A stretch of DNA of 64,000 nucleotides from Escherichia coli (GCF_041886205.1 NZ_CP169029.1), one strand, 5' to 3'. Positions 59,870 to 61,585 are shown, counted from the first letter of the stretch. A program made the numbers and translations. Notes: generated from the letters alone by a model not told the origin.

Positions 59870-60668
59870 TCCTGAATACAGTAGTATTTTGCAGACAAAA
59901 ATTCCGTAAATGGATTATTCGTTTATAATCAGGATAATCTAAAAAAAGGACCCCTGAAAAAGTGGTTAACATGGAACAAATGAAAGTTACTCCTTCTGTA
60001 ATTGTTATGTCTTATGGCCTCATCCCTTTTAGCCGGATACTGAAAAACATCCTTCGAGGGGGACGGTTACCATGAAGATTTTTTTGGAGAATGTTTATCA
60101 TTCTGATTGCTATTTCCTGCCGATAAGAGATAACCAGCAAGACCTTGTCGGCGTTGAGTTAATTACCCATTTCTCCAGTGAAGATGGTACGGTTCGTATC
60201 CCGACGAGTCGGGTTATAGCGCAACTTACCGCGGAGCAACATTGGCAATTATTTTCAGAGCAGTTGGAATTACTAAAATCATGCCAACACTTTTTTATTC
60301 AACATAAACTCTTTGCCTGGCTTAATTTAACGCCACAAGTGGCTACATTATTATTAGAGAGGGATAATTACGCAGGCGAACTATTAAAATATCCGTTTAT
60401 TGAACTGTTGATTAATGAGAATTATCCGCATCTCAATGAAGGAAAAGATAATCGCGGTCTTTTATCCTTATCGCAAGTGTATCCCCTTGTGTTAGGTAAT
60501 TTGGGAGCAGGCAATAGCACAATGAAAGCGGTTTTTGATGGTCTTTTCACCCGCGTAATGCTGGATAAAAGTTTTATTCAGCAACAAATCACGCATCGCT
60601 CCTTCGAACCGTTGGTGATGCTGCCAACTTACTGATTTAGTGTATGATGGTGTTTTTGAGGTGCTCCA

Positions 60669-60944
60669 GTGGCTTCTGTTTCTATCAGCTGTCCCTCCTG
60701 TTCAGCTACTGACGGGGTGGTACGTAACGGCAAAAGCACCGCCGGACATCAGCGCTATCTCTGCTCTCACTGCCGTAAAACATGGCAACTGCAGTTCACT
60801 TACACCGCTTCTCAACCCGGTACGCACCAGAAAATCATTGATATGGCCATGAATGGCGTTGGATGCCGGGCAACTGCCCGCATTATGGGCGTTGGCCTCA
60901 ACACGATTTTACGTCACTTAAAAAACTCAGGCCGCAGTCGGTAA
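60669..60944 (+). CDS. insA: IS1 InsA, 91 aa (GTG start)
   Basis: ORF track 60669..60944. Confidence 0.95.
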
Positions 60945-61366
60945 CCTCGCGCATACAGCCGGGCAGTGACGTCATCGTCTGCGCGGAAATGGACGAACAG
61001 TGGGGCTATGTCGGGGCTAAATCGCGCCAGCGCTGGCTGTTTTACGCGTATGACAGGCTCCGGAAGACGGTTGTTGCGCACGTATTCGGTGAACGCACTA
61101 TGGCGACGCTGGAGCGTCTTCTGGGCCTGCTGTCGGCCTTTGAGGTCGTGGTATGGATGACGGATGGCTGGCCGCTTTATGAATCACGCCTGAAGGGAGA
61201 ACTGCACGTTATCAGCAAGCGATATACGCAGCGCATTGAGCGGCATAACCTGAATCTGAGGCAGCATCTGGCAAGGCTGGGCAGGAAGTCACTGTCGTTC
61301 TCAAAATCGGTGGAGCTGCATGACAAAGTTATCGGGCATTATCTGAACATAAAACACTATCAATAA
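60863..61366 (+). CDS. insB: IS1 InsB frame (InsAB' transposase via -1 frameshift at A6C 60920-60926)
   Basis: ORF track 60863..61366; ttaaaaaactc slippery site present. Confidence 0.93.
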
Positions 61367-61585
61367 GTTGGAGTCATTACCCGAACCGTTTATTCGTGCG
61401 ATTCAGGCGCAAATTTCCCCTTGTTGCAATTGCATCATCGCGGGGGGCATTGATACGCCAGAAATATTGGCACAGATTACCCCCTTCGATTTCCATGCTC
61501 TCCAGGGATGCCTGTGGCCTGCCGTTCCCATAAATCAGATAACGACGTTGGTTCAGCGATAACCCTCCTGTTTGCTGGTGTTTAA

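Follow-up and report, generated by a model that had tools for sequence, protein, structure and literature searches.

IS1 insertional inactivation, the preference of IS1 for AT-rich DNA and the phenotype of a ydiV knockout are all established, and the locus described here, in which an IS1 interrupts the gene for the anti-FlhD4C2 factor YdiV, has close precedents in engineered ydiV mutants and in insertions upstream of flhDC. In the ST131 strain EC958, Tn5 insertions in ydiV were strongly enriched at the swim-plate edge (logFC 8.9) and a clean ydiV deletion was hypermotile (PMC5425062), and in MG1655 deletion of ydiV raised flagellar gene expression (PMC11836070). YdiV turns FlhDC noise into pulses of class II expression (PMC7002133), and this pulsing is lost together with YdiV in the engineered mutants (Tn5 and lambda-Red in EC958, Keio in MG1655; PMC5425062, PMC11836070, PMC7002133). 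The allele described here would remove YdiV likewise but, unlike the engineered mutants, it arose naturally, spares an N-terminal fragment of 180 residues and puts an IS1 upstream of selO. The IS1 and IS5 insertions found upstream of flhDC in K-12 (IS1H in MG1655) are also recurrent and spontaneous and also raise motility (PMC5100188, PMC11836070). Those insertions raise flhDC transcription, whereas here it is the post-translational inhibitor of FlhD4C2 that is destroyed, and flhDC itself is untouched.

The way in which YdiV engages FlhD is known from the YdiV-FlhD complex of E. coli (PDB 4ES4). The FlhD interface is made up of helices alpha6-alpha8, with most contacts coming from alpha8 (residues 176-192), and the FlhD-contacting residues are F155, F168, H175, E179, F181, R183, A184, and Q188 (PMC3510510). 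Three mutants were made, A184E, F181A, and F181A-A184E; A184E destroyed FlhD binding, and the heading of that section states that the YdiV mutants neither bind FlhD nor inhibit motility in vivo (PMC3510510).

Here we describe a ydiV::IS1 allele in a 64,000-nucleotide stretch of an E. coli genome (GCF_041886205.1, NZ_CP169029.1), referred to as the window. It is an ordinary, already-known kind of event, because the same kind of allele, one with the identical target included, is annotated (PGAP) in RefSeq genomes, and neither its anatomy nor its mechanism departs from anything known. We propose that the locus very probably records a single recent transposition of IS1 into a preferred target in ydiV, in a strain near E. 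coli 6EVA, which would have given a null allele of the anti-FlhD4C2 factor with no need to invoke selection.

The IS1 element and its empty site

The element in ydiV (Table 1) carries all of the sequence-level defining features of IS1. The 23-nt arms of its inverted repeats are 78% complementary, its outermost letters are GGTGATGCTGCCAACTTACTGAT at the start and ATCAATAAGTTGGAGTCATTACC at the finish, and the InsAB' fusion runs through all 232 aa with no internal stop and scores 246.7 bits against the NCBIfam model for the IS1 family transposase (NF033558, cutoff 100). Its reading frames and ends are intact. The element is 97% identical to the annotated IS1A, from which it differs by 23 nt in the DNA and by nine residues in InsAB'. 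No identical copy was found in 5,426 complete E. coli genomes, where the best match is 99.2%, or in 72,556 plasmids, where it is 98.9%, and this IS1 is a variant of its own. The earlier note on this DNA had described a complete 768-bp IS1 between perfect 9-bp direct repeats, and the coordinates that it gave for the element and for both repeats are exact to the base.

Table 1. Features of the ydiV-selO region and of the second IS1 in the window
Feature	Coordinates	Strand	Details
ydiV 5' fragment	60072-60613	+	nt 1-542 (codons 1-180 + 2 nt)
Left target-site duplication	60605-60613		9 bp, CGAACCGTT
Complete IS1	60614-61381	+	768 bp; inverted repeats, transposase profile
IS1 left terminal inverted repeat (IRL)	60614-60636		23 nt, imperfect; at exact element end
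Promoter-like site in IRL	60621-60648		promoter scan
insA	60669-60944	+
InsAB' transposase	60669-61366	+	232 aa via -1 frameshift
A6C slippery heptamer	60920-60926
IS1 right terminal inverted repeat (IRR)	61359-61381		23 nt, imperfect; at exact element end
Right target-site duplication	61382-61390		9 bp, CGAACCGTT
ydiV 3' fragment	61391-61562	+	nt 543-714 (codons 181-237 + stop)
ydiV-selO intergenic stem-loop	61564-61620	+	intact; -36.9 kcal/mol, z = -5.3 vs shuffles
selO (ydiU)	61625-63061	+	intact, 478 aa; NF040880 SelO, 1025.7 bits
Second IS1	48141-48908	-	independent; splits espL1 (type III effector) pseudogene
Duplication of second IS1	48132-48140 and 48909-48917		GCTCTGATG

The duplicated target CGAACCGTT occurs only twice in the window when both strands are searched. 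The closest relative found is 6EVA, a strain from human faeces in Singapore, which differs from window positions 13227-64000 at 17 places in 49.2 kb, none of them in ydiV, for an identity of about 99.97% (99.96-99.98%) over 49 kb. Its ydiV is uninterrupted, with an overlap of exactly 9 bp between the blocks aligned on the two sides of the site; the duplication also passed the check, proposed in the earlier note, that the target should be single-copy, as the empty site of 6EVA has one CGAACCGTT. Because a strain 99.97% identical to the window has an empty site with a single copy of the target, the insertion is real and recent. The exact ydiV::IS1 locus was not found in any of the 5,426 complete E. 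coli genomes, and the exact left junction is absent from metagenome contigs and from contigs of species-representative genomes. We found no evidence against the structural reading of the insertion.

With a median of about 11 copies of IS1 per E. coli genome, and another copy 12 kb away in the same window, an assembler might have placed a repeat copy of IS1 in ydiV where there is none. We regard such an artefact as very improbable, in view of the perfect 9-bp duplication and the exact restoration of the frame, which are the signature of real transposition, and of the distinctness of the ydiV copy, which is unlike its neighbor at 26 nt. The junction also appears in a separate short-read assembly, a 2,039-bp Logan contig from SRR28800585 that is 100% identical to window positions 58604-60642; the contig spans the left junction and stops 29 nt into IS1, which is as expected for a short-read assembly that reaches a repeat.

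The neighboring copy, in espL1, has its own history. Of the 26 differences in 768 nt between the two elements, 20 lie at IS1 positions 500-720, and this clustering suggests that they are mosaic IS1 variants. The espL1 site is likewise empty in 6EVA, with a single GCTCTGATG and blocks that overlap by 9 bp, and strain XJ5.2 has an IS1 in espL1 that lies 701 bp from the site in the window. Since the two copies in the window are inverted and flank thrS-infC-rpmI-rplT-pheMST-ihfA-btuCED-nlpC-ydiV', they could be read as the ends of a composite element, or as a pair that recombined and so inverted or moved the 11.7-kb thrS-ydiV' segment. The two copies are, however, each flanked by a matching 9-bp duplication of their own, and neither 6EVA nor XJ5.2 shows any break in collinearity or change of orientation across the segment, so that a composite transposon or an inversion between the two copies is refuted by the alignment and the separate duplications, and we give it essentially no credence.

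The only two indels that separate the window from 6EVA are single bases at 29986 and 30268 in the chbB-chbC region; they make the chbC and chbB annotations of 6EVA aberrant, while chbC of the window is open for 451 codons, and they are likely to be either homopolymer sequencing errors or recent frameshifts in 6EVA. Between chbG and katE, the window (34936-35190) and 6EVA have about 210 bp that are extra relative to XJ5.2. This is ordinary repetitive extragenic sequence made up of REP/BIME-type palindromic units such as GCCTGATGCGCTTCGCTTATCAGGCCTAC and GCCGGATAAGGCGTTCACGCCGCATCCGGC. The ydjO homologue at 38182-38986 (35% GC) is broken, with two separate frames of about 143 codons, and the annotation of ydjO gives a frameshift in 6EVA and an internal stop in XJ5.2.

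The interrupted ydiV gene and its predicted product

Deletion in silico of the IS1 and one copy of the repeat gives a 714-nt ORF of 237 codons that reads ..HRSFEP and FIRAIQ.. on the two sides of the join. The earlier note had claimed this restoration, which we reproduced, and it was also right about the gene identities and the split frame at the locus. The alignment of the restored ORF with PDB 4ES4 and 3TLQ covers residues 1-237 (E = 6e-159) and shows four substitutions relative to K-12. On 358 E. coli contigs an identical 237-aa protein is listed as the anti-FlhDC factor, and the 5' fragment is 100% identical to ydiV of 6EVA and of XJ5.2. The genes run in the order usual for E. coli, btuD-nlpC-ydiV-selO-hemP-aroH, which retains the nlpC-ydiV-selO synteny. 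Full-length identity and synteny both identify the host gene as ydiV.

The insertion divides codon 181, and from residue 181 on the encoded ORF diverges. The interrupted ORF (60072-60635) specifies 187 aa, the 180 YdiV residues followed by LVMLPTY, with its stop inside the left inverted repeat of IS1. Among ~15 billion proteins this fusion is encoded elsewhere by the SRR28800585 Logan contig only. Of the FlhD interface, the encoded product keeps F155, F168, H175, and E179, and the interface is not intact, as the fragment reads L, M, and L where YdiV has F181, R183, and A184 and is missing Q188 along with the last 56 residues. On the far side of the element, the 3' fragment carries the coding sequence for the bulk of helix alpha8 and for the final beta/alpha units of the EAL-like barrel. 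Because the encoded product fails at the FlhD interface, we call ydiV a pseudogene in the window strain, and on its predicted product the allele is almost certainly null. The 187-aa fragment may be made in the cell. It should, however, be unable to bind FlhD and be inactive, because the cut falls inside the FlhD-binding helix alpha8 and leaves the fragment without F181, R183, A184, and Q188, and the structure indicates that it is probably also unstable.

A 64-codon ORF (61368-61562) was also observed that starts with a TTG in the right inverted repeat of IS1 and continues in frame into the ydiV 3' fragment, beginning MESLPEPFIRAIQ. If translated, it would yield the alpha8 helix and C-terminus alone; no sign of a promoter or ribosome-binding site for this ORF was found.

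Recurrence of IS1 in ydiV: target preference or selection

IS1 lies in or adjoining ydiV in 43 of 5,426 complete E. coli genomes (~0.8%), in the same orientation as in the window in 20 of them and in the opposite orientation in 23. Exact mapping covered 26 of the 43 and, with the window added, gave 27 insertions, all flanked by 8-9-bp duplications. All but one of these are inside ydiV (25 in sampled genomes, at nt 1-703, and that of the window), and the exception lies in nlpC, 298 bp upstream. The independent IS1 events inside ydiV number at least 20, or 23 including the window by a conservative count that uses site, orientation and IS1 variant and collapses likely shared descent. The carriers are unrelated and come from humans, poultry, cattle, fish, and water.

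Several of these events fall on exactly the same target. The 9-bp sequence TCGCAAGTG at ydiV nt 408 was used in both orientations, CCCCTTGTG at nt 420 received four events, also in both orientations, and CGAACCGTT at nt 542, the target in the window, received three. Coincident site pairs number 10 versus 0.35 expected, and none of 200,000 uniform simulations reached 10; same-site, same-orientation copies of IS1 that differ by ~7 nt could share one ancestral insertion altered by gene conversion, which would reduce the number of independent events, and in the minimum count, which uses site and orientation only, three coincident pairs remain. Nine of the 27 mapped insertions cluster at ydiV nt 520-543, which encode the start of the FlhD-binding helix, and 14 of the 18 distinct duplications in ydiV begin with G or C. 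In the E. coli chromosome, IS1 thus returns to the very same 9-bp targets.

The alleles nearest to that of the window show the same behavior. EC6 (NZ_CP182398) has an insertion at the same target CGAACCGTT in the same orientation, although its IS1 differs at 23 nt and its flanks are ~2% divergent. In EC20-72C-1 (NZ_AP026961) the same target CGAACCGTT is occupied in the opposite orientation, and in EH2252 (NZ_AP027176) the insertion is displaced by 1 bp from the site in the window. A ydiV::IS1 pseudogene is annotated in the ATCC 8739 record NZ_CP033020 as well. The IS1 of the window differs from these RefSeq ydiV::IS1 copies at 23-28 nt, whereas its flanks match 6EVA, in which the site is empty. 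On this comparison of elements and flanks, the window insertion is an event independent of the annotated RefSeq alleles.

IS1 prefers AT-rich DNA and particular sites, and the GC content of ydiV is 42.2% versus 50% for the window. As controls we used two other AT-rich, dispensable genes of the window, chbR (41.6% GC) and ydjO (35.2%), in each case 883 bp of gene with the window IS1 inserted, in each orientation, against the 5,426 genomes. IS1 was found with chbR in 41 genomes (21 + 20) and with ydjO in 50 (27 + 23), compared with 43 for ydiV; these are counts of genomes, not of events independent in the phylogeny, and they include IS1 copies lying as far as ~1.3 kb beyond the gene in question. 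The insertions in chbR and ydjO, like that in espL1 in the window, involve the same element and 9-bp duplications, in genes that have no link to motility, and those in chbR and ydjO have a similar prevalence (41-50 per 5,426 genomes). Because the two controls give equal or similar counts, selection cannot be read from recurrence by itself. The independent IS1 events in ydiV may still be in modest excess. We conclude that the recurrence in ydiV is best explained by the target preference of IS1, and that selection for ydiV loss is not needed.

A different view would be that the knockout is adaptive, with lineages repeatedly losing ydiV through IS1 as the release of FlhD4C2 aids motility or colonization. 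It would accord with at least 20 independent insertions in a 714-bp gene in unrelated strains and with the ability of ydiV mutants to outcompete the wild type at the swim-plate edge (PMC5425062), and it would have a parallel in laboratory K-12, with its IS insertions upstream of flhDC. However, the motility-unlinked controls are hit in as many or nearly as many genomes, target preference is indicated by the repeated use of identical sites in both orientations, and every ydiV::IS1 allele is rare, with no sweep and with all of them together in so small a share of the genomes. We therefore consider the adaptive view unlikely. A more specific form, in which ydiV is a natural evolutionary switch that is inactivated by IS1 at hot sites (nt 408, 420, and 520-543) and whose loss is favored in some niches, is a shade more doubtful still. 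If it were true, the hot sites of IS1 in ydiV would be a contingency mechanism for motility, and the bet-hedging pulses would be lost with the brake.

Consequences for selO and for flagellar expression

The start of selO lies 244 bp past the IS1, and IS1, ydiV, and selO are all in the same orientation. IS1 insertions are polar in both orientations, and because of this a reduction in selO expression is likelier than activation. Any effect of the IS1 on selO is nevertheless speculation. The promoter scan predicted no sigma-70-like promoter at the right junction or between 61382 and 61625. A hybrid promoter reading outward across the right junction was considered and rejected, as the scan gave no match and the candidate TTGGAG-17 nt-TATTCG has, by eye, a poor -10. 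The 3' arm of the stem-loop between ydiV and selO contains the selO Shine-Dalgarno sequence AGGAGG, and the stem-loop has no T-run. This strong, conserved structure suggests translational control of selO, or a structure that stabilizes or terminates the transcript.

One could take the main consequence of the insertion to be on selO and not on ydiV, either because read-through from the ydiV promoter is blocked or because of an outward IS1 promoter. The shared strand, the short distance from IS1 to selO and the lack of a predicted sigma-70-like promoter in front of selO are compatible with a block to read-through, and Salmonella SelO (YdiU) shuts down flagellar genes through UMPylation of FlhC (PMC9239255, as stated in PMC9728131). 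Since Salmonella YdiU also shuts off flagellar genes, a polar loss of selO would add to the ydiV phenotype. On the other hand, no hybrid promoter is predicted at the junction, and the insertion leaves both the stem-loop and the ribosome-binding site of selO as they were. Acid induces ydiV but not ydiU in Salmonella, a difference that speaks for their separate transcription (PMC9728131). With the ydiV coding sequence undeniably destroyed, we judge it improbable that the effect on selO is the main one.

We favor instead a course of events centered on ydiV. The IS1 transposase would have cut CGAACCGTT with a 9-bp stagger, and repair would have duplicated the target. The choice of ydiV would follow from the preference of IS1 for dispensable DNA that is rich in AT and, inside such DNA, for particular sites. 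Insertion at codon 181 would have produced a null allele of the anti-FlhD4C2 factor, whose residual product, residues 1-180 plus seven that are IS-encoded, would have lost half of alpha8 and the C-terminal quarter of the fold. Such a fragment would be expected neither to sequester FlhD4C2 nor to pass FlhD4C2 to ClpXP. If the flagellar regulon is intact, expression of the class II/III flagellar genes would then be higher and less pulsatile, and motility would be higher.

The suggestion of the earlier note that class II/III genes may be derepressed in the window strain is reasonable, because published E. coli ydiV knockouts raise flagellar expression and motility. The flagellar regulon itself is located beyond the window. 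In the near-isogenic 6EVA, flhDC, motAB, cheAWRBYZ, tar, tap, flhBAE, fliA, fliZ, fliC, and fliDST are all annotated as intact, and its annotation has no IS between flhD and uspC. A Shigella-type origin with general flagellar decay, which was raised by the IS1 load, was rejected, as the window is nearly identical to a commensal strain with flagellar genes annotated as intact, and both SelO and the restored YdiV are protein alleles common in E. coli. The size of the phenotypic effect of ydiV loss may be small, because earlier work cast doubt on whether YdiV is expressed, and matters for regulation, in E. coli K-12 (noted in PMC7002133).

The window adds one independent natural ydiV::IS1 allele to at least 20 others and leaves current understanding unchanged. 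The ydiV::IS1 call is useful for strain annotation and for phenotype prediction: in the window strain, flagellar expression and motility could rise, and host recognition of flagellin could change.
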